Below, piece after piece: positions 4,428-38,062 of a stretch of DNA of 64,000 nt. The notes under the pieces are model-generated. The model did no database searches. It worked only from the letters and a program-made list of their open reading frames with translations, and had not been told where the DNA came from. Each line of letters opens with the position of its first letter. Position 1 is the stretch's first letter. The stretch is from positions 1 through 64,000 of the forward strand of contig CAVTUQ010000017.1 of NCBI GenBank assembly GCA_963737905.1. The letters are read 5' to 3'. The stretch comes from an uncultured delta proteobacterium. GTDB lineage: Bacteria > Desulfobacterota > Binatia > UBA9968. A program made the position numbers and the translations under genes.

Positions 4428-5820
4428 TTGCGAAGGGAAGAATCACGGGTTCTCTTAGTCGTTTGCCTGGGAACGTTTTTCCACATGCAGAGCGTCGGTA
4501 GCATCGGCGTATCGCTTTCAGCTATCCAAAAGGAATTTAACACGAGCCTAGCCGCCGTCCAATGGATTGGCTTGATGGGGTCGATTATGCTCTCCAGCCT
4601 TTCGCTTGGCTTTGGACGGGCCGGCGATCTCATCGGGCGAAGAACAATTTTCAAGACCGGGCTCGCTCTGTACACGACGGGAGCGGGCTTGGCAGCGGTT
4701 CTGTGGAACCTTTCCGCAATTGGTCGCGTCACGGTGCGTGATGGCGCTCGGCTTGGCCATGGCAGCACCTATGGCCGCGGCCATCATAGCCTCCGTGCAT
4801 GGACACGATCACCGGGGGCGCGCTCTGGGCCTGCTGGCGGCCTCCATCGCCTTGGGGAGGACGACTGGACCGACAATCGGCGGGGCCATTCTTCAGTTTT
4901 GGGGTTGGAGAACGGTGTTTCTTGCCAATTGCATTTTTGGAGTCGCCACCTCCGTGACTATGTTCTTGATCTTTGAAGGCAGGGAAGAACGCCGCAAGGT
5001 TTCGGTCGATTATTTGGGTGTGCTTTCCTTGGTAGTCGGCTTTCCTTCGTTTCTGATTGCCCTGACAGTCGGGACGCGCCTGGGCTGGGATGCCTCGGAT
5101 ATCGTTCTCTGGCTTGGCTTGGCGGCGACGGGAATCGTCAGTTTCGTATGGCGAGAGCTGCATGCCGAAGCGCCCCTGATGAATCTCCGTTATTTCAGGA
5201 GCATTCCCTTCGCCAGGTCCATGTTGTCGTTAGTTCTTGCGACCCTGGCGTTCTACCCGGTCGCCATCTTCGGCCCCATTTATCTGCTCAACGTCATCGG
5301 GACGACTCCACTGGCGGCCGGTCTAGCGATGGCGACGCTGCCTCTGTGCACCACAGTGCTCTCCCCGCTAAGCGGCCGGCTGGCGGATCGATTTAATCCC
5401 AGATGGGTGGCCGGACTCGGTTTGTGCGTTATTTTTTTAGGTGTGTTCTTTTACGCCAGACTCGGTGAGGACTCGACTCTTATTTGGATCGTTTTTGTCC
5501 TGTCCATTTTAGGAGTGGGCATCGGGCTCTTTGTTCCCGCCAATGACAAAGCGGCCTTCTCGACGGTGCCGAGTCGAGATTACGGAATGCTTGCAGCCAT
5601 GCTGACCACGTTTGGCACGGGTTCCGGCGCGCTGGGTACAACCGTAGCGGTAGCGCTAGCCGAGATCGCAAAGAGAAGTCGAATAAGCGGTGATGCCGCG
5701 GGATTTGCCTATGACCAGCAATTTGCTTTCTGGACGCTGCTGCCGCTGGCTGCTCTGGCGGTCCTTGTCAGCCTGCTGGGAAAGCGCGAAAGGGGTAAGG
5801 GAAGCGGTTACGAACCTTGA
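4428..5820 (+). CDS. MFS transporter (EmrB/QacA DHA2-like), split by a +1 frameshift near 4697
   Basis: GRAGDLIGRR motif in ORF 4428 continues into the TM helices of ORF 4606-5820; removing one G in GCGGTT restores AAFCGTFPQL. Confidence 0.8.
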
Positions 5821-7778: not shown

Positions 7779-8026
7779 ATTTTGGTGGGTTTCTTAAGAT
7801 CGTCAGGGACGTCAGCGACAAGCACGTTCTGTGAATTGACTACGTAGATGGGTTCGCCGTTGGGAGTAAACTCGTCGGTTCGTATGATATTGGTTACCAC
7901 CGTTTTCATTCTGATCATGGAGCCGTCTGAGAGTTTGTATGCGTTGTACTCTTCCCGTACGGTCTCGAAATCGACCAGGGTTCCCCCGATGGTTTTATCG
8001 CCGACTGTCAGCTCGACTCTCTTCAT
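7772..8026 (-). CDS. Small hypothetical protein (84 aa)
   Basis: GGAGG RBS upstream of ATG at 8026; MKRVELTVGDK...EEYNAYKLSDGSMIRMKTVV...GEPIYVVNSQN. Confidence 0.7.
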   Translation of the reverse strand: MKRVELTVGDKTIGGTLVDFETVREEYNAYKLSDGSMIRMKTVVTNIIRTDEFTPNGEPIYVVNSQNVLVADVPDDLKKPTKIQ

Positions 8027-23861: not shown

Positions 23862-24875
23862 ATGCGTTTCTACATCAACATCCTGACCACTTATTATCCC
23901 GATCTCGATCCGCCCTACGACGTTTACTATCAGCAGATTCTCGAGCAAATCGAGCTCGCCGAAGAGTTGGGCTGGGAATGTTTCATGTTCAACGAGCACC
24001 ATTTCCTCGGCTACGGCGGCCTCGTCGCCAACCCCGCAGTGCTGCTGGCCGCCGCCGCGGCGCGCACCTCGCGCATTCGCTTGGGTCCCTGCATCGCGAT
24101 TCTGCCGTTACGCCATCCGCTGCAGAGCGCCGAAGACTACGCTATGGTGGATGCGGTTTCAGGTGGCAGGCTGGAGTTCGGTATCGGCTCCGGCAATACG
24201 CCTTTGGATTATCACGTGTTCGATATCGAGAGGGAGGAGGGGCAGGCGAGGATGGAAGAAGCGCTGGAGATCATTCTCAAAGCTTGGCGTAGCGAACGTT
24301 TCAGCCACGAAGGGAAGTTCTGGCGCTTTCAGGAGATAACGCTCTACCCGAGGCCGGTGCAGCAACCGCATCCGCCGATTTGGGTCGCAGGCACATCGGC
24401 GAGGACTCTGGAATGGGCGGGGCGCCGGGGGTATGACATTATGACGGTGGGCCATCCGCATCCACCGGAAAAAGTGGGTCCGGGTGTCGAGGCGTGGAAA
24501 AAAGCGTTAATCGAGAGTGGCATCGACCCAAAGGAGCGCCGTTGCCAGTTCCACACGAGAACTCACGTTAACGAGAATAGCGAGCGTGCGCGCGACGTCG
24601 CCATGGCGGCGGTCACTCGCTACGACGCGATTTCCAGAATCGGTCGCAGATCAGTAAAGCCCGAAACGGACAACTATGATTGGGATGGGATGTTGGCAAC
24701 CGGCCGAAATCTCTACGGCAATCCCGACCAGTGCATTGAGATCATTCACAACGCCATGCGTCATTACTATTTCAATATCTTGACTACAACTTTTAATTTC
24801 GGCGGCATCCCCCACGAAGAGATCAAAAAATCCATGCGTCTCTTCGCCCGAGAAGTGATGCCGGCCCTCCGCTAA
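23862..24875 (+). CDS. LLM class flavin-dependent oxidoreductase
   Basis: AEELGW, NEHHF, TSRIRLG, AEDYAMVDAVSGGRLEFGIGSG, PRPVQQPHPPIWVA. Confidence 0.9.
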   Translation: MRFYINILTTYYPDLDPPYDVYYQQILEQIELAEELGWECFMFNEHHFLGYGGLVANPAVLLAAAAARTSRIRLGPCIAILPLRHPLQSAEDYAMVDAVSGGRLEFGIGSGNTPLDYHVFDIEREEGQARMEEALEIILKAWRSERFSHEGKFWRFQEITLYPRPVQQPHPPIWVAGTSARTLEWAGRRGYDIMTVGHPHPPEKVGPGVEAWKKALIESGIDPKERRCQFHTRTHVNENSERARDVAMAAVTRYDAISRIGRRSVKPETDNYDWDGMLATGRNLYGNPDQCIEIIHNAMRHYYFNILTTTFNFGGIPHEEIKKSMRLFAREVMPALR

Positions 24876-24947
24876 AATCGGTTTGTTGTCTTGAGCACTA
24901 GAGAATCATGCTTCTATTGGTAGGGGTGGATGTAGTACATTCCTCCC

Positions 24948-25934
24948 GTGCCGCGGAACGATCAGATAACCCGTCAGTGGCACTTGTTGCGGCGGCTCGA
25001 AAACACCCGGGGCCTGACTCTCTCGGAGCTTGTCGAAGCGGTCCCTGACGATTACCCAAAGAACGATCGCACGGTTCGGCGGGATTTAGAGGCGCTGGAA
25101 GCGGTCGGTTTTCCGCTCGTGACAGAACACCACAATGGGCAGACACGCTGGCGGTTGATCGAGGGCTTCCGAAATATTCCCGCGCTCGGGTTTTCGGCTA
25201 CGGAGCTGATGGCTCTGACTTTTAGCCGGAAACTACTCGAACCGTTACAAGGCACGGAGATTCAGTCAGCGCTCAACTCCGCATTGAACAAAGTCGCGAG
25301 CGCGTTACCGCCGCAGGCGCACGGGTATGTTCGCTCGCTCGATAACTTGTTTTCCATCGGCCTCGGCCCGCACAAGAATTATCAGCAATACAAGACCATC
25401 GTCGACCTCATCACCCAAGCCATCGACAAAACTCGAACCGCACAGATCAGGTATTTCTCCGCATCGCGTAACGCAACCAGTCGGCGGGAAGTCGGTCCTT
25501 ATCGTCTCTGGTACGCTTCCGGCGGCCTCTACTTGATCGCCTATGACCACCTGCGAAAAGATGTGAGGATGTTCGCTGTCGAGCGGATTCGCTCCATCAC
25601 TCTCACGGATCATCCGTATCAAATGCCGCTCGGCTTCGAGGTGGAGGAGTACGTCCAGGACGCGCTCATGATTATGAGAGGACGGCGGATCGACGTGGAA
25701 CTTCTCTTTTCCAAGAAAGTGGCGGCATGGATGAAGGACAAGCTCTGGCATGCCAGCCAGGAGGCGTTCCTCATGAAAGACGGACGGTTGAGAATGACCT
25801 TGAAGGTGGCGGACACCGATGAGCTTGTAGGCTGGATCTTGAGCTTTGGCAGCCAGGTCCGGGTCGTCAGCCCCGAAAGTCTGTGGAAAAAGGTGCGAGA
25901 CGAAGCGAGAAAAATAGCGGGTTCAAAAGGATAA
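24948..25934 (+). CDS. WYL-domain transcriptional regulator (HTH-WYL-WCX, PafB/PafC/DriD-like)
   Basis: wHTH RTVRRDLEALEAVGFP; WYL REVGPYRLWYASGGLYLIAYDHLRKDVRMFAVERI; WCX WILSFGSQVRVVSPESL. Confidence 0.92.
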   Translation: MPRNDQITRQWHLLRRLENTRGLTLSELVEAVPDDYPKNDRTVRRDLEALEAVGFPLVTEHHNGQTRWRLIEGFRNIPALGFSATELMALTFSRKLLEPLQGTEIQSALNSALNKVASALPPQAHGYVRSLDNLFSIGLGPHKNYQQYKTIVDLITQAIDKTRTAQIRYFSASRNATSRREVGPYRLWYASGGLYLIAYDHLRKDVRMFAVERIRSITLTDHPYQMPLGFEVEEYVQDALMIMRGRRIDVELLFSKKVAAWMKDKLWHASQEAFLMKDGRLRMTLKVADTDELVGWILSFGSQVRVVSPESLWKKVRDEARKIAGSKG

Positions 25935-26012
25935 GGTCGGAGACGGCGTCATTTTTAACTTTGAACTGAGCGAAGCAAACGGTTTCCCGATCGCATTTAA
26001 CGCCCGGCTATT

Positions 26013-26028
26013 ACATCAAAAATGATGT
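26013..26028. promoter_or_regulatory. Palindromic operator, probably for TA autoregulation
   Basis: ACATCA-AAAA-TGATGT perfect inverted repeat 9 bp upstream of the toxin ATG. Confidence 0.55.
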
Positions 26029-26037
26029 TGCATCCCT

Positions 26038-26391
26038 ATGGATTTCACAGTAGAGTTTTATGAGACGGAGACGGGGAAGTGCCCGGTGCGAGAATTCCTG
26101 GACGAGTTGAAGGCCAGTGATCCGGACGATTTCGCGGCGGTGGTCGCCGGTCTGGCAAAACTGCGGAGCCGGCAATATCACCGGGAGCCGTTATCCAAGG
26201 CGCTCGGCGATGGGTTGTTTGAACTGCGCCACGTCGGCAAGCTTAATACCCGTGTGTTGTGGTTTTTCATGAAGAATCGCCGAATCGTTGCGCTGCACGG
26301 CATCCGCAATAAGAGGCGCGCGATACCGTCTCGCGATCTCAATACTGCGCGGGAGCGGATGCGTGACTGGCGGAAAAGAGCAGAACAATGA
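26038..26391 (+). CDS. Type II TA toxin, RelE/ParE superfamily (HigB/Gp49-like)
   Basis: VEFYETETGKCPVREFLDEL...EPLSKALGDGLFELR...RVLWFF...IVALHGIRNK. Confidence 0.88.
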   Translation: MDFTVEFYETETGKCPVREFLDELKASDPDDFAAVVAGLAKLRSRQYHREPLSKALGDGLFELRHVGKLNTRVLWFFMKNRRIVALHGIRNKRRAIPSRDLNTARERMRDWRKRAEQ

Positions 26392-26768
26392 AAAAAACCA
26401 ATTTCGACCGTTACCTCGAAAAGCAGTTGCAGGATCCGACGTTTGCCGCCCGTTTTAAGAACGCGGGCGAGGCGTGGGATGTCGCGCTGCAAATAGCCGC
26501 CCTTCGCGAGCAGGCCGGGCTTTCGCAAAAGGACCTCGCGAAGCTGCTCAAAACCTCGCAGCAGCAGATTAGCCGGCTTGAGTCGCCGGGCTACGAAGGC
26601 CACTCCCTCAGCACCCTGCGCCGCGTCGCCGGCGTCTTGCACGCCCGGGTGCGCATCGTATTCGAGCCGACAAAAGTCACAAATGAGATGCATGTAGCCG
26701 AACCGCCAGGGCCATATCGCGCCAAGCGTGCTAAGGCTAAAAGAAAACAAACCGGAGTTGGTCCTTGA
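26388..26768 (+). CDS. XRE-family HTH antitoxin (HigA-like)
   Basis: LREQAGLSQKDLAKLLKTSQQQISRLE; ATGA overlap with the toxin. Confidence 0.88.
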   Translation: MKKTNFDRYLEKQLQDPTFAARFKNAGEAWDVALQIAALREQAGLSQKDLAKLLKTSQQQISRLESPGYEGHSLSTLRRVAGVLHARVRIVFEPTKVTNEMHVAEPPGPYRAKRAKAKRKQTGVGP

Positions 26769-26811
26769 ACCCGTTCGCCAGGCTCAGGGCAAGCTTTGAA
26801 CATTGAACCAA

Positions 26812-26904
26812 CGCCAGGCCCTACGGAGCGAAGCGGTTGAACGGTTGGAACGACGTGAACGTTTTGAACGGTAGTTTTCTTGGCGATCGTGACCTTGGAT
26901 GTCA
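26812..26904 (+). repeat. 93-bp direct repeat, copy 1
   Basis: Matches 27874-27966 with 8 mismatches by eye; contains TTGAAC tandem motifs and the GTGAC-N7-GTCA palindrome. Confidence 0.9.
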
Positions 26905-26921
26905 CTCGTATGTGGTAGAAA
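26889..26921 (+). promoter_or_regulatory. Putative WYL operator/promoter for the nucleotidyltransferase
   Basis: GTGAC-CTTGGAT-GTCAC-N10-TAGAAA, 7 bp before ATG 26929. Confidence 0.55.
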
Positions 26922-26928
26922 TCACGGC

Positions 26929-27474
26929 ATGAGCGAGGAACTGGAGGTTTTGAAGGAGGTGGCGCGGCGCCTCGACCGCGTCAACATCGGCTACATGATT
27001 ACCGGATCGATTGCGACAAACTTTTACACGGTCCCGCGCATGACTCGTGATATCGATATCGTCGTGGAGTTGTTCGAGCAAGACATTGGCCGATTCATTC
27101 CGCTCTTTGAAAACGACTATTATCTGGAACCGCAGACCGTCGGAGAAGCGGTTCGGAACAAAGGGATATTCAATCTGATTCATGATCAATACATCATCAA
27201 AATCGACTTCGTGGTACGGAAAGATACACTCTACCGGCGCCGCGAATTCTCCAGAAGAAGGAAAGTTACGGTCGATAATCAGGATCTCTTCGTCGTATCA
27301 CCGGAGGATCTCATCCTATCCAAGCTGGACTGGGCGAAAGATTCGCGATCCGAAGTCCAGCTCAATGACGTGCGAAATCTCTTGAAGTCCGTCAAAAGGC
27401 TTAACCGAAGCTATCTTGCCCGCTGGGCAAAGGCATTGGGCATCGAATCCCTTTATCGCGAGGTGAGTAGGTGA
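26929..27474 (+). CDS. Pol-beta-type nucleotidyltransferase (AbiEii/MenT/DUF6036-like), putative toxin
   Basis: YMITGS...PRMTRDIDIVV catalytic GS/DxD motif, KIDF, SPEDLILSKL. Confidence 0.8.
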   Translation: MSEELEVLKEVARRLDRVNIGYMITGSIATNFYTVPRMTRDIDIVVELFEQDIGRFIPLFENDYYLEPQTVGEAVRNKGIFNLIHDQYIIKIDFVVRKDTLYRRREFSRRRKVTVDNQDLFVVSPEDLILSKLDWAKDSRSEVQLNDVRNLLKSVKRLNRSYLARWAKALGIESLYREVSR

Positions 27475-27902
27475 AAGACACGCCTTTGGCAATCGAACGG
27501 AAATTTCGAAAGATGCTGATGAAACGGTCCGGAGAGGAGCGTCTTAAGATGGGATGTTCGATGCATGGGACCGCGCAGGCGCTTGCTAAAGCGTACATAT
27601 CGCAGCAGCATCCGGGTGCTCATCCGGCTCAGTTCAAGCGGCTATTCTTTCTTCACTTTTACGGCCCAGACTTTGAGCCCAAAGAGCGAAAACGAATCGC
27701 GGCAGCCTTGTCCGAGAAACCGCGCGTCCGCCGGAGTGCTGGAGCCGGGCAAGCCGGCAACGCGCAACCTATCACGCCCAAGAATGCCGGCCATCGTGAA
27801 GGTTTCGCCGCGGGTGCGGTCCGGGAAAAACGCGAGACTTATGGAGCAAAGAGAAAAAGCAAAGCTAAACGACCGCCAGGCCCTACGAAGCGAAGCGGTT
27901 GA
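27471..27902 (+). CDS. Small basic hypothetical protein coupled to the nucleotidyltransferase (putative antitoxin/partner)
   Basis: GTGA start/stop overlap; MKDTPLAIERKFRKMLMKRSGEERLKMGCSM...LFFLHFYG. Confidence 0.7.
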   Translation: MKDTPLAIERKFRKMLMKRSGEERLKMGCSMHGTAQALAKAYISQQHPGAHPAQFKRLFFLHFYGPDFEPKERKRIAAALSEKPRVRRSAGAGQAGNAQPITPKNAGHREGFAAGAVREKRETYGAKRKSKAKRPPGPTKRSG

Positions 27903-27966
27903 ACGTTTTGAACGGCTTGAACATTTTGAACGGTAGTTTTCTTGGTGATCGTGACCTCGGATGTCA
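27874..27966 (+). repeat. 93-bp direct repeat, copy 2
   Basis: Offset of 1062 bp from copy 1. Confidence 0.9.
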
Positions 27967-28006
27967 AAATGGTGTGACCTGATCTGTCACAGAGGTACTG
28001 TAGAAT
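27951..28006 (+). promoter_or_regulatory. Putative WYL operator pair and cas3 promoter
   Basis: GTGAC-N7-GTCAA (27951-27967), then TGTGAC-CTGATCT-GTCACA (27973-27991), with TAGAAT at 28001-28006. Confidence 0.6.
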
Positions 28007-28037
28007 CCAAATGTAAACTGCCAACAGAAAAAGACCA

Positions 28038-30532
28038 ATGGTGTCGTTCCCATATATTGCACATCAACGAAAACAGGATGGTGCCGAACAAAGTTTGGAA
28101 GAGCATCTATTCGGCGTTGCTGAAACAGCGAAATCTTTCGCGGCAAAGATTCGTTTAGAGGAGCAAGGTGAGCTAATCGGGCTGCTGCATGATTTGGGAA
28201 AATACAGCAAAGAATTTCAAATTTATTTCCGGTCCGCCGTTGGACTTATCAACCCGGATGAAGATGATTTCGTCGATGCGCGGGGACTAAAAGGAAAGGT
28301 AGATCATTCGACCGCTGGAGCTCAGCTTGTTTGGGAAGAACTCTCGACGCGAGGTCAGTTGGGGAAGATCGCCGGTCAAATCCTCGACTTGTGTATAGCG
28401 TCGCACCACTCTGGCTTGATCAACTGCCTTTCCTCCGATACCAAAAGCGTCGGCGCGGACGTTTTCGCAAAACGGATGCAGAAGTTGGATGATCGAACCC
28501 ACCTCCAGGAAGCCCGGCGCAACATGGACACGGTTATCGCCGAAAGATTCCGCGAGTTGGCTAATAATCCGAAAATAATTGACGGAATCAAAGAATCTAT
28601 CCGGCAAGTGGCAATTTGCGATATTAGGTCAGGAATACGGCCCCACGAAAACCCAATCACGCAATTTAAAACCGGTTTGCTCGTACGATTCCTCTTCAGT
28701 TGCCTGATCGATGCAGACCGCATCAATACAGCCGACTTCGAAAGCCCAGAAACCGCTGGGAAGCGGCTGAATGGTAAGTATTCCGAATGGAATCTACTGA
28801 TCGATCGGTTGGAATTGCATCTTCAGAAGTTCACAGACCAATACCCGATAGATGAATTCCGTCGTCGCATTTCGGACCAATGCAGTCAGAGTGCAACTCG
28901 GGATAAAGGCATATTCACGCTTACCGTACCAACTGGTGGCGGTAAGACGCTCGCCAGTCTTCGGTTTGCGCTACGCCATGCTCAACGGCACGAGATGGAT
29001 CGGGTGGTTTATGTGATTCCGTTCACGTCTATCATCGACCAGAATGCTGACGTCGTGCGGAAGATTTTTGAATCATCAGCGGATGGCGTAGAGCCAGGCA
29101 GTATCGTACTCGAACACCACTCGAATATTACGCCGGAAGAACAAACGTGGAAAAGTAAGATTCTGTCCGAGAACTGGGATGCGCCCGTTGTTTATACGAC
29201 TAATGTTCAGCTATTAGAGACTTTTTCGGGGCCGGCACACGCGGAGCGCGGCGGATGCACCAGTTAGCCAATGCCGTGATTGTCTTTGATGAAATCCAGA
29301 CCCTTCCCGTCAATTGCATTCATCTGTTCTGTAACGCGGTCAATTTCCTTGTCGAACATTGCGGAAGTAGCGTCGTGCTGTGCACGGCCACACAACCACT
29401 GCTGAATCGTGTGGAACCGTCGAAGGGCGCGCTGCGCATGGTTGCAAATAGTGAAATCATGCCGGGCGTGGCGAAACTTTTTGAGGATTTGAAGCGGGTT
29501 GAGGTGGTGAATGGCAGAAAGCCCGGAGGCTGGACGAATGAGGAAATTGCCCGTCTTGCGCTGGACGAAGCGGATCAGAGTAATAGTTGTCTGGTGATTG
29601 TGAATACCAAGAAATCAGCGCAGGCGCTTTTTCAGCTCTGTGAAAGCGCGAAGCAAATGCCGACCTACCACCTGAGCACAAACATGTGCGCCGCGCACCG
29701 CAAGAAGAGGCTTGGTGAAATTCGCGGACGTCTCGCTAACTCTGAGCGTCTTTTGTGTATCAGCACCCAACTAATCGAAGCTGGAGTCGATATAGATTTT
29801 GGATCGGTAATTCGATTCATCGCGGGGATGGACTCTATCGCGCAAGCGGCTGGAAGGTGCAATCGTAATGGACGTCCGAAGTTAGGTAGAGTGCATATCG
29901 TTAACCCATGCGCCGAAAACGTTGATATGCTCAAGGACATAAGCAGAGGAAGGGATACTACCGCGAGACTACTTGATGAGTATGAGAAACAGCCCGCTAG
30001 ATTTGGCAATGATTTGCTCGGACCCGACACGATGGGCTGGTATTTCAATTACTATTTTTTTGACCGGCGCGGAGACATGGATTACCCGGTTCGGGCTGGG
30101 ACGCTTGGGCATGATGACACTCTACTCAATTTGCTCTCGGTCAATCCAAACGCAACCGAAGAGTTTCGTCGTTCCCATGGCGCGTCTCCCAATATGTATC
30201 TTCGCCAATCGTTCATGGCTGCGGCCAAGGCGTTCAAGTCAATCGATGCACCGACCAGAGGCGTAATTGTACCGTATGGCGAAGAAGGCAAGGCTCTTAT
30301 CAATGAATTATGCGCTGCCTTTGCAATTGAAAAACAGTTTGGGCTTCTGCGAAAGGCGCAGCAGTACACGGTCAACGTGTTTCCCCATGAGCTACAGCGA
30401 CTACGGGACGCCCAGGCCGTGCACGAAGTGCAGGACGGTACGGACATTCTCTATCTTGATGCCCGTTATTATAGCGATGAGTTCGGACTGAGCCTGACGC
30501 CCAACGGGGACATGGAGGTGTTATATGCCTGA
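28038..30532 (+). CDS. cas3: CRISPR-associated HD nuclease/helicase Cas3, split by a -1 frameshift near 29222
   Basis: HD motifs (QSLEEHL, LHDLGK, VDHS, SHHSGL, DADR), [40 protein letters not shown]; one extra T in the T5 run restores ET(F/L)[12 protein letters not shown]. Confidence 0.92.
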
Positions 30533-31247
30533 ATTGAATCGGAACATTATTCAGTTTCGCGTCTGGGGACGGTTCGCGCTTTTCACCGATCCAATAACCA
30601 AGATCGGTGGAGAAAAGTGCTCGTATCACATTCCAACCTACGAGGCGATTAAAGGTATCGCCAAGTCGATCTATTGGAAGCCCACGTTCGTTTGGGTCAT
30701 TGACGAAGCGCGTGTCATGAAGCGTATTCGCACCCAAACGAAAGGAACTAAACCGTTGGAATACGGTGGTGGAAATACTTTAGCCATCTACACATTTCTG
30801 GCGGATGTCGAGTATCGGGTAAAGGCTCATTTCGAATGGAATATGCATCGGCCAGAGCTTGCAGATGACCGTAACGAATCGAAGCACCACATTATCGCTC
30901 AACGCATGTTGGAACGCGGCGGGCGGCAGGATATTTTTCTCGGCACTCGCGACTGCCAGGGCTATGTGGAACCTTGCGAGTTCGGCTCTGGAGTCGGTTA
31001 TTACGACAAGTCGGGAGAACTCGCGTACGGTGTGATGTTTCACGGGTTCGATTACCCCGATGAAACAGGGGACGGCAAGCTTCACGCACGTTTCTGGCGA
31101 CCAACCATGACCGATGGCGGGATTCGGTTCGCGCGGCCAGAGGATTGCACGATCAGAAAGTTTGTCAGGGAGATGACCGTGAAGGAATTCGATAAAAAAA
31201 GGAATTTCCGCAGCGTGGAATCCGAAGTTAGCGGATTGGAAGACTGA
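30525..31247 (+). CDS. cas5: Type I-C Cas5 (Cas5d)
   Basis: GRFALFTDP...[16 protein letters not shown]...IYWKP, FLGTRDC. Confidence 0.93.
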
Positions 31248-31248
31248 T

Positions 31249-33144
31249 ATGAGTTGGCTTCAGAAACTCGATGAAACTTACCAGAGATGTGCACGTAACC
31301 CAAGGTTCGTCGGCGAAGCGAAGCCGCTGTTGCCAATCAGCCATGCGACACAGCAAGCTCATGTCGAGATCGTCATAGACGATCAGGGGAAGTTTCGGCG
31401 GGCAACCGTTCTTCCCAAAGTAGAAACGATCCTGCCTGCTACGGAGCAATCGGCTGGCCGGTCCAGTGGCGAAGCACCGCACCCACTCTGCGATAAAATT
31501 CACTATTGCGCCGCCGACTATCCTAAGTATGGCGGTCAGAAACCTGCGTATTACGTCGGATACGCCGAACAGCTGTCGCAATGGTGCAATTCCAGCTTTT
31601 CTCACGCCAAAACCAAGGCTGTGCTCAAGTATGTCAGCAAAGGAACCGTCGTTGCTGATCTTCTCCGCGAGAAGATTTTGCACGTGGGCGATGACGGGAA
31701 ACTCGTGACTTCTTGGGACTCCGATGCCCCTGGACCCGACATATTTAAGTATTTGGCTGCCAAGAAAGAGTCAGGCGTCACGATTCGAGACCAAGGGGAT
31801 GCGTTGGTACGCTGGCGCGTTGAGACGGTAGGAATTCCCTTGTCCGCAACATGGGAAGACCAAGACTTGATGCAAGCTTGGATTGGCTTCTATGCAAGTC
31901 AGAAACAAAGCCGGGGGCTTTGTCAGGTGACTGGAGAAGAATCGATATTGGCGGATCAGCATCCTGCCAGGCTGAGGCACGGTGGAGACAAAGCGAAGCT
32001 GATTTCCTCCAACGATACTAGCGGATTTACTTTTCTCGGACGGTTTATTGATGCCGATCAAGCGTGCGGCGTAGGATTTGATGTCACCCAAAGAGCCCAT
32101 AATGCTTTGCGCTGGTTGATTGGGCGACAGGCATACCGAACTGGGGATCAGGTTGTTGTGGCGTGGGCCGTGTCAGGTAAGCAGATTCCCGATCCTTTCA
32201 AAAACTCGCATGAGTTATTTGGTATTGAGACGCACCAACTGGAAGTAGAGCTGGCATTGCAAGGAGATGTGGGACAGGCGTTTGGAAGGAGACTCGCCCA
32301 GTTGATTGCCGGCTATCGAGCAGAACTCGGTTCGACCAATGAAATTGTCGTCATGGGACTCGACTCGGCTACGCCAGGCCGTATGGCGATCACATTCTAT
32401 CGGGAACTGAGAGGTTCGGAATTTCTCGAGCGCGTTCAAGCGTGGCATGAAAACCTTGCCTGGTTCCAACACTATTCCAAAGAAATTCGCTTCATAGGAG
32501 CGCCGTCTCCTAGAGAAATTGCCGAGGTCGCTTTCGGGCGGCGATTGGACGACAAACTACGGAAAGCAACGGTAGAGCGCCTGCTGCCCTGCATTATTGA
32601 CGGGCAGCCGATTCCTCGCGACCTCATGGAATCGGCGGTACGCAAAACCTGTAACCGGGCAGGTCTCGAACCTTGGGAGTGGGAAAAGAACCTAGGCATC
32701 GCTTGCGCCTTATTCAGAGGTTATTTCGCAGAAAGGAGCTACCAGATGGCGTTAGAATCGAATCGGACCACACGTGATTATCTTTACGGCCGGCTGTTGG
32801 CAATTGCGGAACATATCGAAGACCGTGCACTTTATATCGCTGGTGAAAGACGGGATACGAGCGCAGCCAAGCTCATGCAACGTTTTGCCGACCGTCCCTA
32901 CTCAACCTGGAGAACAATTGAGCTTTCGTTAGGACCATACAAGACACGTCTCCGTGCCAAGCGTCCATCGTTCCTGAATGAAATGGGAAGAAAGCTCGAT
33001 GAGGTTATCGGCGCGTTTCATGAGCCGGATTTCACGGACGAACGACGGCTTTCCGGTGAATTCCTGCTTGGATATCATTGCCAGCGACAGGCGTTGTGGG
33101 CCAAACCAGAGAACGGAACAGATGAAGAGGATAATGATAGCTAA
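31249..33144 (+). CDS. cas8c: Type I-C Cas8c/Csd1
   Basis: MSWLQKLDETY, PHPLCDK, GLCQVTG, AKLISSND, RDYLYGRLLAIAE, FLLGYHCQR. Confidence 0.93.
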   Translation: MSWLQKLDETYQRCARNPRFVGEAKPLLPISHATQQAHVEIVIDDQGKFRRATVLPKVETILPATEQSAGRSSGEAPHPLCDKIHYCAADYPKYGGQKPAYYVGYAEQLSQWCNSSFSHAKTKAVLKYVSKGTVVADLLREKILHVGDDGKLVTSWDSDAPGPDIFKYLAAKKESGVTIRDQGDALVRWRVETVGIPLSATWEDQDLMQAWIGFYASQKQSRGLCQVTGEESILADQHPARLRHGGDKAKLISSNDTSGFTFLGRFIDADQACGVGFDVTQRAHNALRWLIGRQAYRTGDQVVVAWAVSGKQIPDPFKNSHELFGIETHQLEVELALQGDVGQAFGRRLAQLIAGYRAELGSTNEIVVMGLDSATPGRMAITFYRELRGSEFLERVQAWHENLAWFQHYSKEIRFIGAPSPREIAEVAFGRRLDDKLRKATVERLLPCIIDGQPIPRDLMESAVRKTCNRAGLEPWEWEKNLGIACALFRGYFAERSYQMALESNRTTRDYLYGRLLAIAEHIEDRALYIAGERRDTSAAKLMQRFADRPYSTWRTIELSLGPYKTRLRAKRPSFLNEMGRKLDEVIGAFHEPDFTDERRLSGEFLLGYHCQRQALWAKPENGTDEEDNDS

Positions 33145-33162
33145 GTTGGCCAAGGAGGAAAT

Positions 33163-34011
33163 ATGAGCACGTTGCAACAAAAGATAGACTTTGCCGTTGT
33201 TCTTCGCGTCAAGAACGCAAATCCCAACGGCGACCCTCTGAACGGGAACCGACCGCGCACGGACTATGATGGACTCGGCGAAATAACTGACGTGTGCATC
33301 AAGCGCAAGATCAGAGATCGGCTTCTCGAAAAAGGCAGCGCGATTTTCGTTCAGTCGGACGATAGAAAGGTGGACGACGCGAAAAGCCTGCGGGGTAGGG
33401 CCGAGGCTGCCCTTGGGAAAAAGCTTGGTTCCACCGACACAGCCAAAATCGCTTGTGAGAAATGGTTCGATGTCCGTGCCTTCGGTCAGCTTTTCGCGTT
33501 TAAGTCTGACAAAAAAGGTAAGAAAAAAGACGAGGGTGATGATGGAGATACGGGCGTTTCCATCGGAATACGCGGACCTGTCACAGTCCAATCCGCGTTC
33601 AGCGTAGAGCGTGTGAGTATTACAAGCACGCAGATTACGAAAAGCGTCAGCGGTGAAGGAGATGGTAGCAAGCGCAGTTCTGACACAATGGGTATGAAGC
33701 ATCGTGTGGATCAGGGTGTGTATGTATTCTTCGGTAGCATGAACCCGCAGCTAGCGGAGAAAACCGGGTTTAGTGACGAAGATGCTGATGCAATCAAACA
33801 GCTATTACCACGGCTTTTCGAGAACGACGCTTCATCAGCCAGACCCGAAGGCAGCATGGAGGTATCTAAAGTGTTCTGGTGGAAGCATAACTGCAAAGCG
33901 GGACAATACTCCTCCGCCAAAGTTCACCGCACGTTGTCCGTCAAACCTGATGGCAGTTACGAACTCGGGAGTCTTGAAGGCCTGAAACCTGAAGAAATTG
34001 ACGGCTTTTGA
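33163..34011 (+). CDS. cas7: Type I-C Cas7/Csd2
   Basis: ANPNGDPLNGNRPR, TDVCIKRKIRD, DVRAFG, IRGPV, SSARPEG. Confidence 0.95.
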   Translation: MSTLQQKIDFAVVLRVKNANPNGDPLNGNRPRTDYDGLGEITDVCIKRKIRDRLLEKGSAIFVQSDDRKVDDAKSLRGRAEAALGKKLGSTDTAKIACEKWFDVRAFGQLFAFKSDKKGKKKDEGDDGDTGVSIGIRGPVTVQSAFSVERVSITSTQITKSVSGEGDGSKRSSDTMGMKHRVDQGVYVFFGSMNPQLAEKTGFSDEDADAIKQLLPRLFENDASSARPEGSMEVSKVFWWKHNCKAGQYSSAKVHRTLSVKPDGSYELGSLEGLKPEEIDGF

Positions 34012-34050
34012 GAAACATCGGATTCGTCAGTTCACGAAGCGAATTGAACC

Positions 34051-34674
34051 ATGAGCGCCAACATCGAAGACGACCTCGTCATGATCTCCGCCCTGGAGCA
34101 TTACAGTTACTGCCCGCGGCAGTGTGCGCTGATTCATGTTGAGCAAACATTTGACGAGAACCTTTATACGTTGCGCGGCCGGGTTGTGCATGAGCGGGTG
34201 GATGAGCCGTTGGCTGAATTTCAGGAAGGCGTGCGGGTCGAACGGGCGCTGCCGTTGTGGTCGAAACGGCTGGGGCTAATCGGCAAGGCGGATGTCGTCG
34301 AATTTCACGGTGTAATTCCCTATCCCGTCGAGTACAAGCATGGCTCAAAGCGTGAACGGGAGCATGACGATCTGCAACTCTGTGCGCAGGCGATCTGTCT
34401 TGAGGAAATGGCCGGAAAAGCTGTTCCGAAGGGCGCGATCTTTTATCACAGCTCGCGCCGGCGGCGGGAAGTGGCATTTACAGACGCCCTTCGTACCGAC
34501 GTAGAAGCCGCCACGGATGCGATTAGGACAATGATGAAGGAACAAAACCTGCCGCCACCTGTGAATGACAGCCGGTGCCGTCACTGTTCGCTTAAAGATT
34601 CGTGCATGCCTGCGGTTGTGGGGGAGAAGGCGAGGGCCGCTGCTTTGCTACGCAGCTTATTCGTGGCGGTTTAG
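34051..34674 (+). CDS. cas4: Cas4
   Basis: ISALEHYSYCPRQCAL, GKADVVE, PVEYKHG, QLCAQAICLEEM, CRHCSLKDSC. Confidence 0.95.
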   Translation: MSANIEDDLVMISALEHYSYCPRQCALIHVEQTFDENLYTLRGRVVHERVDEPLAEFQEGVRVERALPLWSKRLGLIGKADVVEFHGVIPYPVEYKHGSKREREHDDLQLCAQAICLEEMAGKAVPKGAIFYHSSRRRREVAFTDALRTDVEAATDAIRTMMKEQNLPPPVNDSRCRHCSLKDSCMPAVVGEKARAAALLRSLFVAV

Positions 34675-34688
34675 TATATGAGGAAAAT

Positions 34689-35720
34689 ATGCATCAACTT
34701 CTGAATACCCTTTACGTAACCACAGAAAATTCTTTCTTGCGCCTCGATCATGAAACCCTGAAAGTAAGCGTCGAGAAGGAAACGAAGCTTCAGGTGCCGC
34801 TGCATCATCTCGGGGGCGTAGTTTGCTTCGGCGACGTGATGGTCAGTCCGGCGCTGATGCGGCGCTGTGGCGAGGATGGGCGCTCGCTGGTTTTGCTCGA
34901 CCGTAACGGTCGCTTTAAAGCACGACTTGAAGGGCCGGTATCGGGTAACGTCCTTCTTAGGCGGGCGCAACATCAATGGTCGACCAACGCAGAAAAGTCG
35001 CTTGGCATCGCTAAGAAGATCGTTGCCGGTAAGATCCAGAACTCGAGGCAAGTTCTCATGCGTGCCGCGAGGGAAGCGGCGGATGCCGACGATGAAAAGG
35101 GTCTAAGAGAGGGCGCGGAGGCGCTAGCTGATGCGCTGGTACGGATTCCCAACGGCGACGATATCGATCAGCTTCGCGGATTTGAAGGGGAATCCGCCCG
35201 CGCATACTTCAACTGTTTCGATCACATGGTTCTCGAAGACCGCGAATCGTTTCGTCTCGACGGCAGAAACCGCCGCCCGCCTCTCGATCCAATGAATGCG
35301 CTTCTCTCATTTATCTACTCGATGCTGACGAACGACTGCGTTTCGGCAGCGGAAGGCGTAGGATTGGATCCTCAAGTCGGATTTCTGCACGTCCTGAGGC
35401 CGGGCCGACCGGCGCTTGCTTTGGATTTGATGGAAGAGTTGAGGGCGATTCTCGCGGACCGTCTGGCTCTGACATTGGTGAATCGCCGGCAGGTGACCTC
35501 CGCAAACTTCGAAGATCGTCCAGGTGGTGCCGTACATCTCGGCGAAGAGGGAAGGAAGGTTGTAGTGGTCGCATATCAGACTCGGAAGCAGGAAGAAATC
35601 CTTCATCCGTTGCTGGAGCAAAAAGTTCCCTTGGGGCTTGTGCCGCATGTGCAAGCGCGTTTATTGGCGCGCGTCTTGCGCGGCGACATGGAGGAGTATG
35701 TTCCGTTTCTCTATCGGTAG
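34689..35720 (+). CDS. cas1: Type I-C Cas1
   Basis: LLNTLYVT, GNVLLRRAQ, RGFEG, RNRRPPLDPMNALLSF, GLDPQVGFLH, LALDLMEELR. Confidence 0.96.
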   Translation: MHQLLNTLYVTTENSFLRLDHETLKVSVEKETKLQVPLHHLGGVVCFGDVMVSPALMRRCGEDGRSLVLLDRNGRFKARLEGPVSGNVLLRRAQHQWSTNAEKSLGIAKKIVAGKIQNSRQVLMRAAREAADADDEKGLREGAEALADALVRIPNGDDIDQLRGFEGESARAYFNCFDHMVLEDRESFRLDGRNRRPPLDPMNALLSFIYSMLTNDCVSAAEGVGLDPQVGFLHVLRPGRPALALDLMEELRAILADRLALTLVNRRQVTSANFEDRPGGAVHLGEEGRKVVVVAYQTRKQEEILHPLLEQKVPLGLVPHVQARLLARVLRGDMEEYVPFLYR

Positions 35721-35728
35721 CTCTGACT

Positions 35729-36019
35729 ATGCTGATTCTTGTTTCCTACGACGTTTCAACGAAAACTGCCGAAGGCGAGAAACGTCTTCGCAAGGTAGCA
35801 CAACTGTGTAAAGACTTCGGCCAGCGCGTGCAAAAATCAGTATTCGAGTGTTCTGTAGATCAGGCGCAGTACGAGGATCTTGTTCGTCGCCTTCGTCAGT
35901 GTATAGAGGAGGATGAAGATAGCATCCGGTTCTATAGGCTCGTCGAGCCGCGTGATCGCTATATGAAAGTGTATGGTGTCAACCGTGATGTTGATTTTGA
36001 GGCGCCTCTTATTTTTTGA
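35729..36019 (+). CDS. cas2: Cas2
   Basis: LVSYDV, RLRKVAQLCKDFGQRVQKSVFEC, DSIRFY. Confidence 0.96.
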   Translation: MLILVSYDVSTKTAEGEKRLRKVAQLCKDFGQRVQKSVFECSVDQAQYEDLVRRLRQCIEEDEDSIRFYRLVEPRDRYMKVYGVNRDVDFEAPLIF

Positions 36020-36207: not shown

Positions 36208-38062
36208 GTAGCGCCCGCTCTTCGGAGCGGGCGAGGATTGAAACGTACCTGAGCGCCGTACTCCTGCGCGATGTTGCCGTGTAGCGCCCGCTCTTCGGAG
36301 CGGGCGAGGATTGAAACATCTGATTTGGCTCCCGAAGCTACATCACTGCTGTAGCGCCCGCTCTTCGGAGCGGGCGAGGATTGAAACTCCATTCATACCG
36401 GAGGCTGCACGGTAGAAGCCGGGTAGCGCCCGCTCTTCGGAGCGGGCGAGGATTGAAACATAATGATCGTACCGGAAATGCTTAAATCCTCTATCGTAGC
36501 GCCCGCTCTTCGGAGCGGGCGAGGATTGAAACCTACATATACGTGTGCCATCGTAGATCGGCATCAACATGGGTAGCGCCCGCTCTTCGGAGCGGGCGAG
36601 GATTGAAACATCCTGTCCGCCCTGCATCTAATATCGCCGGGTCAGGTAGCGCCCGCTCTTCGGAGCGGGCGAGGATTGAAACTGTCTGCGATGCAGCGAA
36701 GCTCGCCTACGCATGAGTAGCGCCCGCTCTTCGGAGCGGGCGAGGATTGAAACGTTCCTACCGCCGAGGCACCCTGACGGGCAGGCACGTAGCGCCCGCT
36801 CTTCGGAGCGGGCGAGGATTGAAACGGTGGGGCGATATATCGGCAGCGAGTTTGCTGCTACGTAGCGCCCGCTCTTCGGAGCGGGCGAGGATTGAAACAC
36901 GGTGGACAATGGAAGTCGCCACAATATTACCAGGTAGCGCCCGCTCTTCGGAGCGGGCGAGGATTGAAACTCACGGAGGTCAGTCACCACGCCATTGAGC
37001 CAGTTGGTAGCGCCCGCTCTTCGGAGCGGGCGAGGATTGAAACATTTTTAGCGACGTATCTGTCTAAGCTGCAAGGTAGAGTAGCGCCCGCTCTTCGGAG
37101 CGGGCGAGGATTGAAACGGGCGAAATCCACTATCGACGCAGGGTGAAACCGGGTAGCGCCCGCTCTTCGGAGCGGGCGAGGATTGAAACTATATTTTGTC
37201 ATCGGTCCCCGCATCAGTCATTTAAGTAGCGCCCGCTCTTCGGAGCGGGCGAGGATTGAAACTTTTTGTAACGAGATTACAGACCACACGACGCTTACTG
37301 TAGCGCCCGCTCTTCGGAGCGGGCGAGGATTGAAACTCGTTACAATAATCACAGTAGCACCGTAACAGGATACGTAGCGCCCGCTCTTCGGAGCGGGCGA
37401 GGATTGAAACCTTCATGGAAGTTACGCTCCAGAGTCTCATGCCGCGTAGCGCCCGCTCTTCGGAGCGGGCGAGGATTGAAACCCAACCTAAGTAATCAAA
37501 GCGAAACGCGGCGATAGTAGCGCCCGCTCTTCGGAGCGGGCGAGGATTGAAACCATGCAAATGGCTGCTAATCATGCTGGAATTACCTAGGTAGCGCCCG
37601 CTCTTCGGAGCGGGCGAGGATTGAAACCTCGAATCCGCCTATTAGATCGGCCTTGCTGATTTTGTAGCGCCCGCTCTTCGGAGCGGGCGAGGATTGAAAC
37701 ACCAGTAACGGCAGCAGGCCACGCCCTAGGGGAGGTAGCGCCCGCTCTTCGGAGCGGGCGAGGATTGAAACCCAACTGTTCTTTTGCGAGATGGGATCGA
37801 CGCCGATGTAGCGCCCGCTCTTCGGAGCGGGCGAGGATTGAAACATTGCCTGCCACACAACTGAAGCGGCGGTTTTGTCGTAGCGCCCGCTCTTCGGAGC
37901 GGGCGAGGATTGAAACCGTGGGCGAATAACCTCGGGCTACAGGGGATAAACGGGTAGCGCCCGCTCTTCGGAGCGGGCGAGGATTGAAACCAGCCGTTGC
38001 TGATCGTGTTTGTGTGCCTGCGAGCGTAGCGCCCGCTCTTCGGAGCGGGCGAGGATTGAAAC
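36208..38062 (+). CRISPR. Type I-C CRISPR array, 26 repeats and 25 spacers (33-40 nt)
   Basis: 37-bp repeat GTAGCGCCCGCTCTTCGGAGCGGGCGAGGATTGAAAC with a CGCCCGCTC-TTCG-GAGCGGGCG hairpin and ATTGAAAC 3' end. Confidence 0.98.

Follow-up and report, generated by a model that had tools for sequence, protein, structure and literature searches.

How is the type I-C CRISPR-cas operon controlled when it stands next to a gene for a WYL-domain regulator, and is the small nucleotidyltransferase cassette between the two under the same control? The question is raised by the first 64,000 nt of contig CAVTUQ010000017.1 (assembly GCA_963737905.1, forward strand; hereafter the window) from an uncultured delta proteobacterium. 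A first-pass annotation of this DNA, made from the sequence alone, had noticed palindromes at a fixed distance from -10-like boxes in front of both cassettes, and had read them as a PafBC-like regulon switched on by the adjacent WYL protein. That interpretation is partly supported here. Judged from sequence and by analogy with known systems, the regulator is probably a DriD-like homodimeric activator of the local defence island that acts through three palindromes. The sites, their conservation, their exclusive linkage to the regulator family, their geometry and the family placement of the protein were computed directly. The elements on which the argument turns are the following.

24948-25934, + strand: regulator gene, coding for a wHTH-3HB-WYL-WCX protein (winged helix-turn-helix, three-helix bundle, WYL and WCX domains) of 328 aa with a GTG start (MPRNDQ...), described from Pfam, PADLOC, a DriD alignment and a structural model
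26806-26904, + strand: first copy of a 99-nt direct repeat, with a TTGAAC-N3 array, a T-rich stretch and most of site 1
26889-26905, + strand: site 1, GTGACCTTGGATGTCAC, predicted WYL-dimer site in the nucleotidyltransferase promoter
26916-26921, + strand: -10-like box TAGAAA preceded by TGG, 10 nt 3' of site 1
26929-27474, + strand: small nucleotidyltransferase gene (181 aa, DUF6036/DUF2204/AbiEii-like)
27868-27966, + strand: second copy of the 99-nt direct repeat, with a TTGAAC-N3 array at 27899-27931
27951-27967, + strand: auxiliary site, GTGACCTCGGATGTCAA, upstream of the cas3 promoter site, the two starting 23 bp apart
27974-27990, + strand: cas3 promoter site, GTGACCTGATCTGTCAC, predicted binding site
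28001-28006, + strand: -10 box TAGAAT, 10 nt after the cas3 promoter site, with no -35 box
28038-30532, + strand: cas3, as two overlapping open reading frames (ORFs), from Pfam and NCBIfam

At site 1, GTGAC (26889-26893) and GTCAC (26901-26905) are separated by N7, and 10 nt further on stands TAGAAA (26916-26921), followed by the nucleotidyltransferase ATG at 26929. At the cas3 site the half-sites are TGTGAC (27973-27978) and GTCACA (27986-27991), again around N7; GTCAC ends at 27990, and after 10 nt come TAGAAT (28001-28006) and the ATG at 28038. The third palindrome (27951-27967) has one mismatch, its final half-site being GTCAA. Direct reading bore out the annotated coordinates of all three palindromes, the N10 spacings and both boxes. 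Over the whole window GTGAC-N7-GTCAC with at most one mismatch was found five times against 1.23 expected (sd 0.96; none of 100 shuffles reached 5), and three of the five matches fall in one 1.1-kb stretch, the nucleotidyltransferase-cas3 region. A sigma-70 scan of the + strand from 24700 to 28300 returned no -35/-10 pair and the hexamers 16-18 nt 5' of TAGAAT have no likeness to TTGACA, in agreement with the earlier claim that neither promoter has such a -35. If TAGAAT is taken as -12 to -7, the cas3 promoter site would span about -39 to -23. A direct repeat flanks the nucleotidyltransferase cassette and leaves the cas3-proximal site outside, as annotated; its length is 99 nt at 90% identity (26806-26904 vs 27868-27966), not the 93 bp first given.

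Conservation was assessed in two sets of loci. A protein search with the regulator gave 33 loci at 52-85% identity in records of Binatia, Deltaproteobacteria, Nitrospirota and Acidobacteriota, and an alignment-based search gave 171 relatives, of which 80 were kept, 63 of them on contigs outside the first set. More than 170 relatives were present in one species-representative collection, including Nitrospira records not labelled as metagenome-assembled genomes (e.g. Nitrospira sp. NS4). The NS4 record, L082, combines a site with TAGGAT. In the first set, 25 of the 33 loci carry a site with one mismatch or none in the 1300 nt 3' of the WYL gene; among the remaining eight, the contig ends at the gene in L022 and about 130 nt after it in L030, and L033, L034 and L037 have two-mismatch sites. 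The second set has such a site within 1300 nt downstream at 39 of 63 loci (61 of which have at least 300 nt there), and four more loci have sites further downstream, behind inserted cassettes. Across the regulator loci, the 39.0 kb downstream contain 50 sites, and the 227 kb lying neither upstream nor downstream contain 27. Upstream there were none, and hence no operator at the regulator's own promoter, in 29.9 kb, made up of the 1000 nt 5' of the regulator genes of the 33 loci and the window, some contigs ending sooner. Among relatives of 57-85% identity from the alignment-based search both the recognition helix and the motif are identical. The first-pass annotation had proposed conservation beside WYL homologues as its test, and the motif proved to be strongly conserved there, with the geometry kept.

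The distance to the -10 box was counted from sites with the core GAC-N7-GTC and at most two flank mismatches, which gave 64 + strand sites downstream of first-set regulators. Between offsets 5 and 15, TAnnnT occurs in these sites only at 10 (25 sites), 5 (six) and 12 (two); the second set has it at 10 in 22 of 58, at 11 in one and nowhere else. Pooling yielded 57 distinct promoter sequences, whose consensus is gTGACCT-N4-TGTCAc-N10-TAnnnT; one sequence lies inside a regulator coding region, probably by chance. For 56 of the 57, the best TTGACA match at spacers of 16-18 covers 1-3 of the 6 positions. Sites recur in two arrangements: one follows the regulator stop codon by 9-12 or about 60 nt, in either orientation, and the other is a second site about 100 bp on (23-34 bp in the Binatia/Deltaproteobacteria type), followed by the -10 box. 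The spacings of site pairs (23, 32-34, 98-105, 113 and 184 bp) are not cleanly in helical phase. A site heads the nucleotidyltransferase in three independent loci (the window, L010 and L054), and in L010 and L054 the orthologous sites lie 39-42 nt before its start. The respective boxes, TAGAAA, TAAGAG and TAAGAA, have no final T, are preceded by TGG and end 7-9 nt before the start codon (7 nt in the window), so that the nucleotidyltransferase mRNA would be leaderless, given the predicted -10-like box.

In the host genome (6.7 Mb), exact GTGAC-N7-GTCAC sites number 8, of which two belong to the locus; the reversed control gives 2. The pattern GAC-N7-GTCAC-N10-TAnnnT gave 4 matches vs 0-3 for shifted controls, and the three off the locus (within a coding region, near a PIN-like gene and 5' of a pilT-like gene) look like chance. 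TGACCT-N4-TGTCA matched 8 times, three of them at the locus, and none of the 10 off-locus matches listed (five of this pattern and five of the looser TGACC-N5-TGTCA) has a -10-like box at N10. A regulon wider than the locus, for which the first-pass annotation had suggested a genome scan, was therefore rejected for this genome, the off-locus sites being at background level and without a -10 box.

The same counts bear on whether the palindromes serve some other factor, of the CRP/FNR type or the neighbouring XRE antitoxin, or act as recombination or terminator hairpins, with the position of the -10 box incidental. The half-sites TGTGA/TCACA do recall CRP boxes, the sites lie at the borders of swapped cassettes and in the 99-nt direct repeat, and the 5-bp stem could fold into a small hairpin. 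A CRP/FNR-type site, however, is TGTGA-N6-TCACA and is usually centred near -41.5 or further upstream, whereas here the half-sites are spaced as TGTGA-N9-TCACA with the centre at about -31; a CRP-type site was rejected on this spacing (N9 vs N6). The sites moreover track the WYL gene in Binatia, Deltaproteobacteria, Nitrospirota, Acidobacteriota, Rokubacteria and Tectomicrobia, with or without HigBA and the nucleotidyltransferase, elsewhere in the host genome they stay at background and without the box, the TAnnnT offset is fixed and oriented to the downstream gene, and no T-run follows the stem, nor does the terminator scan give a terminator there. A function of this kind is highly improbable.

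Rigid spacing to a -10 box at promoters without a -35 is described for two WYL activators; the cited papers are represented here by excerpts of their text. PafBC promoters have the form tGTCgg(N10)tA(N3)T without a -35 and are contacted by PafBC at -23 to -28 (PMC8635444), which agrees with the motif as the first-pass annotation quoted it. DriD promoters carry ATACGAC-N7-GTCGTAT over the -35 position, again without a -35 and at an invariant distance from the -10 (PMC13004042). The didA oligonucleotides printed in the excerpt from the latter paper contain GTCGC-N10-CAATCT, and since the 'optimised -35' TTGACA was engineered 17 nt before CAATCT, we infer from the printed sequences that CAATCT is the didA -10 hexamer. 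The GTC triplet then stands 12 nt 5' of the -10 hexamer in PafBC, DriD and the present promoters alike, with the DriD offset taken from one oligonucleotide.

The regulator itself matches the WYL (PF13280, 1.4e-19, 70.3 bits, cut-off 21.8) and WCX (PF25583, 5.2e-18, 65.6 bits, cut-off 23.9) families of Pfam. No Pfam HTH match was obtained; residues 3-70 align with the wHTH of DriD, and the model places helices at 2-17, 25-31 and 40-52 and a beta hairpin at 57-70, with a predicted local distance difference test score (pLDDT) that is mostly 76-91 for residues 11-70 and averages 68 for residues 1-10. In the full AlphaFold model (mean pLDDT 78) the winged HTH is followed by a disordered linker, a bundle of three helices (84-96, 104-118 and 122-134), the WYL barrel and the WCX domain. 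Homologues begin with ATG at the equivalent MPR. The regulator is the sole member of its family in the host genome, with no paralogue. Its match to the PADLOC model for cas-associated WYL proteins (8.8e-41) and its position adjoining the cas operon are what it has in common with that group, in which the WYL motif was first found; Makarova et al. 2014 are said to have noted WYL genes next to cas genes, and one such protein, Sll7009 of Synechocystis, reportedly has a negative effect on one CRISPR array.

As a single query, the regulator matched PafBC (8e-17), PafC (7e-13) and DriD (2e-10) over the full length, compared with 0.75 for CapW and 0.95 for BrxR. A profile of 18 homologues, searched against PDB sequences, again recovered PafBC (1.9e-21), PafC (1.5e-17) and DriD (3.3e-14) over the full length, and CapW (0.003) and BrxR (0.0031) over the WYL domain only (residues 150-217). 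Foldseek ranked DriD first (5.5e-17), followed by PafBC (8.3e-16), CapW (5e-8) and BrxR (7.7e-8), although TM-scores were low (~0.29) because domain orientations differ, so that only the rank order is informative. By sequence and model the regulator thus belongs with the activators PafBC and DriD, far from the repressors CapW and BrxR. The first-pass annotation had taken PafBC as its model; the activator grouping, with PafBC and DriD, stands, and the closest analogue is instead the DriD homodimer on a full GAC-N7-GTC palindrome.

The residues predicted to read the DNA point the same way. R41 and R45 are invariant in 18 of 18 homologues and are placed by the HMMER alignment on R37 and R41 of DriD, which read two guanines of each half-site (PMC10853764); R46 and R50 of PafB likewise read the GTC triplet (PMC8635444). 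E40 of DriD, which reads the C of CGAC, is replaced by Arg in the regulator, consistent with the change of half-site from CGAC to TGAC.

Support for the predicted binding of the WYL protein to the palindromes is strong at the sequence level, because the sites are linked exclusively to the regulator family across phyla, are absent upstream and are at background elsewhere, and conservation extends to the base-reading residues. Activation is preferred to repression because there is no -35, the rigid offset is identical to that of proven activators and the protein lies in the activator branch. Binding, activation over repression, the ligand and the transcription starts are what we infer in the following scheme. 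The WYL domain would load a ligand, for which single-stranded nucleic acid arising in phage replication or DNA damage is the likeliest candidate, and the homodimer of the WYL protein (24948-25934) would then bind its palindrome. The bound dimer would sit at about -39 to -23, where a -35 would be, with GTC 12 nt before TAnnnT, and would recruit or position the housekeeping RNA polymerase on -35-less promoters that could not recruit sigma region 4 alone. The type I-C cas operon and, through a weaker -10 variant, the leaderless nucleotidyltransferase cassette would be switched on, and the upstream second site, whose spacer CCYNGGAT is itself conserved, would probably add cooperativity.

Several points weigh against this reading. 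The loci are mutually related, so the counts are not independent events, and some 17 of the 63 loci in the second set lack sites altogether, the Candidatus Nitrospira defluvii type among them. The TAGAAA of the nucleotidyltransferase promoter lacks the final T of TAnnnT; here the annotated N10 spacing held with a variant -10-like box, which is kept in all three independent loci. A TGn extended -10 box is present in 19 of the 57 promoters and could give activity independent of an activator. On the opposite strand, 12 first-set sites have TAnnnT at offset 9-11, mostly from an A/T-rich tract 5' of the site, and 8 of these are in Nitrospirales-type loci. A dimer across -39 to -23 would also block polymerase, and BrxR and CapW, which are defence-linked WYL repressors, sense single-stranded DNA (ssDNA) as well (excerpts of PMC11662680). 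In a hand-read alignment at ~23% identity, finally, R176, R189, R207, Y240 and R288 of DriD are changed in the regulator.

Some of these points would suit a repressor of the BrxR/CapW type, with the same protein and sites, in which ligand-free occupancy, perhaps with looping to the auxiliary site, blocks polymerase until the ligand releases it; the biological outcome, defence induced on ssDNA, would be the same. The characterised defence-island WYL regulators encoded in cis repress, according to the excerpts of PMC11662680, and the overlap of the site with the core promoter, the extended -10 boxes and the paired sites ~23-34 or ~100 bp apart, which suit cooperative repression, all agree with this. 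Against repression, no usable -35 is present; the -10 box keeps a rigid offset, the one found in PafBC and DriD promoters, and CapW and BrxR match in the WYL domain only, with E 0.003, the activators scoring 1e-14 to 1e-21. Repressors of the BrxR/CapW group also generally bind their own, often bidirectional, promoters, and 0 sites stand 5' of the regulator's own gene in the 29.9 kb. Repression is a rather unlikely alternative on this balance.

The ligand may be considered apart from the mode of control. About 6 of the 11 ssDNA contacts of DriD (Y, S, R, Y, R, and W replaced by F) are kept in the same hand-read alignment, which may be misregistered. A DriD-like activator could respond to a signal other than ssDNA, such as another nucleic-acid species or a nucleotide second messenger: among the five differing contacts are the counterparts of R207 and Y240, at which mutation impairs DriD, and a WYL factor that senses cyclic di-GMP is reported (PMC11880434, excerpt). 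Against such a signal, PafBC, DriD and CapW all bind ssDNA in the excerpts cited, the WYL-motif Tyr is kept, as is the first Arg in the R-x-F/W-R strand, and the block RKDVRMFAVER is invariant in the 18 homologues. We regard a different signal as unlikely.

Further features were observed around the sites. In a subgroup of homologues (L093, L096, L099, L100, L103-L106 and L108, with the Candidatus Nitrospira defluvii chromosome among them) the 3.5 kb downstream contain no site; such siteless homologues could be orphan regulators, or their targets could be arranged differently. In L020, L021, L024, L026 and L034-L036 a tract rich in A/T and containing a T-run lies 12-40 nt 5' of the promoter site and is read as UP-element-like, with a divergent promoter as a possible alternative. 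In several Nitrospirales loci (L021, L023, L025 and L036) the leader that separates cas3 from its -10 box contains repeated units of the TGTCATTCCGAAC type.

The TTGAAC-N3 units with a 9-bp period within the 99-nt repeat (26835-26870 and 27899-27931) are a dispersed repeat family. The three-unit pattern has 389 matches in the genome vs 1 for the control, and 179 arrays of at least three units, mostly of 4, were found; 75 of the 179 lie wholly inside long open frames, which take up 85.5% of the genome, and 28 close inverted pairs occur. Many unrelated soil contigs terminate at 27899 and 27931. The family is of the repetitive extragenic palindrome (REP)-like kind, and since it is a genome-wide repeat, the arrays were rejected as a specific part of the regulatory module. 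TTGAAC-type arrays also stand directly 5' of WYL sites in L005, L006, L007 and L010. Their nearness to sites may reflect the capture of cassettes at repeats or a mere preference for intergenic DNA.

What the promoters head was examined in a family scan. Of the 93 + strand ORFs no shorter than 120 aa within 3.2 kb behind them, 92 were included, the omitted one being part of a regulator gene. The commonest families were DEAD (12), the Cas3 C-terminal domain (10), the Cas3 HD domain (9), ResIII (5), RNase_H_2 (5), VWA (5) and Fic (3), and Cse1, RAMP, Cas6, GSU0053/54 and N6_Mtase were also found. Cas3 follows the promoter in L005, L020, L021, L023, L024, L026, L029, L036 and L037 (Pfam and PADLOC) and in L035, where it was identified by tblastn with the Cas3 of the window, and a GSU0054-type (I-G/U) protein follows it in L025. 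The other cassettes code for SspB-like DUF4007 and SspC proteins (L016 and L028), HsdR (L006), Fic/SoFic (L006 and L008), VWA proteins with an RNase H-like/MkoA-like helicase (L013 and L017), Schlafen/AlbA_2 and a PDC-S41 helicase (L007 and L027), ORF6N (L010 and L033) and an RNase T-like exonuclease (L005). By their predicted families, the genes headed by the promoters are defence genes.

The remaining features of the locus in the window are these.

23862-24875: luciferase-like monooxygenase gene, 5' neighbour of the regulator gene
26038-26391, + strand: HigB-like gene (Gp49/DUF891), from Pfam
26388-26768, + strand: XRE-HTH antitoxin-like gene, pairing with the HigB-like gene, from Pfam
27471-27902, + strand: partner ORF of the nucleotidyltransferase (143 aa), without a family
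30525-36019, + strand: cas5c, cas8c/csd1, cas7/csd2, cas4, cas1c and cas2, from NCBIfam
36208-37845, + strand: CRISPR array with a 37-nt repeat ending in ATTGAAAC and a period of about 73

The type I-C identity of the system follows from the presence of Cas5c, Cas8c/Csd1, Cas7/Csd2, Cas3, Cas4, Cas1c, Cas2 and the array together (NCBIfam E-values: Cas5c 5.9e-77, Csd1 8.7e-113, Csd2 7.4e-95, Cas4 3.8e-43, Cas1c 2.9e-158 and Cas2 9.8e-21). The first cas3 ORF (28038-29267) holds the HD domain and helicase motif I, and the second (29255-30532) motif II onward; the break (29200-29270) lies just 5' of helicase motif II and is compatible with a frameshift or an assembly error. Among short contigs from four soil DNA runs, 0 cover the cas3 junction and none joins across the nucleotidyltransferase cassette; the joints listed from these runs, whose sides measure 28-38 letters, probably derive from other organisms. 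No RNA run was found that contains the region 24900-29200. The HigB-like/XRE pair has no site of its own in 25935-26037. In L054 a HigB-like gene (4552-4899, 83% identical) likewise stands directly after the regulator, in the same layout. The nucleotidyltransferase matches DUF6036 (19.8 bits, 7e-4) and DUF2204 (19.2 bits, 1e-3) in Pfam below the curated cut-offs, its nearest Atlas clusters carry DUF6036/DUF2204/AbiEii on 10-42% of their members, and neither PADLOC nor NCBIfam gave a match. Its partner ORF (27471-27902) matched no family in the Pfam, PADLOC and NCBIfam scans, and beside the nucleotidyltransferase in other loci only its first 80 residues are conserved. The toxin role put forward for the nucleotidyltransferase in the first-pass annotation is a lead from its sequence.

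Set against known WYL systems, the regulator most resembles DriD of Caulobacter crescentus (PDB 8TP8 and 9PFQ): both have the five-part architecture, DriD is the best fold match, the site is in each case a homodimer-type full palindrome with a GAC-N7-GTC core over the -35 position of a promoter without a -35 box, the recognition-helix arginine pair is common to both, and so is the offset GTCxC-N10-hexamer (from the didA oligonucleotide). The two proteins differ in that identity is ~23%, the DriD half-site is ATACGAC as opposed to GTGACC/GTGACA here, with Glu as opposed to Arg at position 40, and the ssDNA contacts are only partly kept; the regulon under DriD is a chromosomal one for damage, with a site at the DriD promoter itself, whereas here the targets are adjacent defence cassettes and no site stands 5' of the gene. 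PafBC, a mycobacterial factor that works by sigma adaptation through a -26 element, is the best sequence match and has the same GTC-to-TAnnnT distance, lack of a -35 and arginine pair. It is, in contrast, a PafB/PafC heterodimer (or fusion) that contacts a non-palindromic half-site through one HTH and has about 150 genes under its control, while the present regulator is the product of a single gene with full inverted repeats and local targets.

DdaA, a WYL activator of Acinetobacter (Moraxellaceae) with the motif CGWCA-N5-TGWCG, activates restriction-modification and type I-F cas genes (PMC12392091, excerpt). It resembles the present regulator in raising the transcription of such genes and in the palindromic GAC-N7-GTC core, the likeness drawn here being one of motif and role; it differs as a global regulator that replaces the SOS response, with sites at many repair genes. 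BrxR and CapW also lie beside diverse, swappable defence systems with palindromes in the neighbour's promoter, and CapW senses ssDNA; the capW studied in Escherichia coli has a bidirectional promoter in common with its operon of the cyclic oligonucleotide-based antiphage signalling system (PMC11662680, excerpt). Both are, unlike the reading preferred here, repressors, and their likeness extends over the WYL domain only (E 0.003), while the present sites are only downstream, at promoters without a -35.

The mechanism class (PafBC 2021, DriD 2022-2026) and a WYL activator that raises CRISPR-Cas expression (DdaA 2025) are already published. A search of one literature collection found neither an operator or promoter grammar for cas-adjacent WYL proteins nor a locally encoded regulator of a defence island of the activator type. 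The contribution of the present analysis is a precise, testable promoter grammar, gTGACCT-N4-TGTCAc-N10-TAnnnT, together with the regulator family to which it belongs.

A wider reading, put forward tentatively, is that the cas-associated WYL proteins of this clade are not repressors but DriD-type activators that own a portable -35-less promoter module, at which cassettes are swapped by recombination. Gain and loss of cassettes at the module is suggested because the 99-nt repeats flank the nucleotidyltransferase cassette and because the 3' end of the WYL gene appears to be duplicated in L010, where a stretch at about 7870-7951, 5' of the nucleotidyltransferase site, looks by eye like a second copy of it; that copy suggests from its sequence that cassettes were inserted via duplication of the region of the regulator end and site. 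The cassettes found behind the module comprise cas3 of at least four subtypes, Ssp, HsdR, Fic, Schlafen-like, VWA/helicase and nucleotidyltransferase genes. If the wider reading is true, any cassette behind a copy of the module would come under one nucleic-acid sensor, CRISPR interference and toxins of the abortive-infection type would be fired together, and the module would amount to an integron-like expression platform for defence genes that works without an integrase. The WYL regulators of defence islands studied to date are repressors; if activation holds, the PafBC/DriD mechanism would extend from damage regulons to the local control of CRISPR-Cas and other defences, and would explain how unrelated cassettes in one island are induced together.

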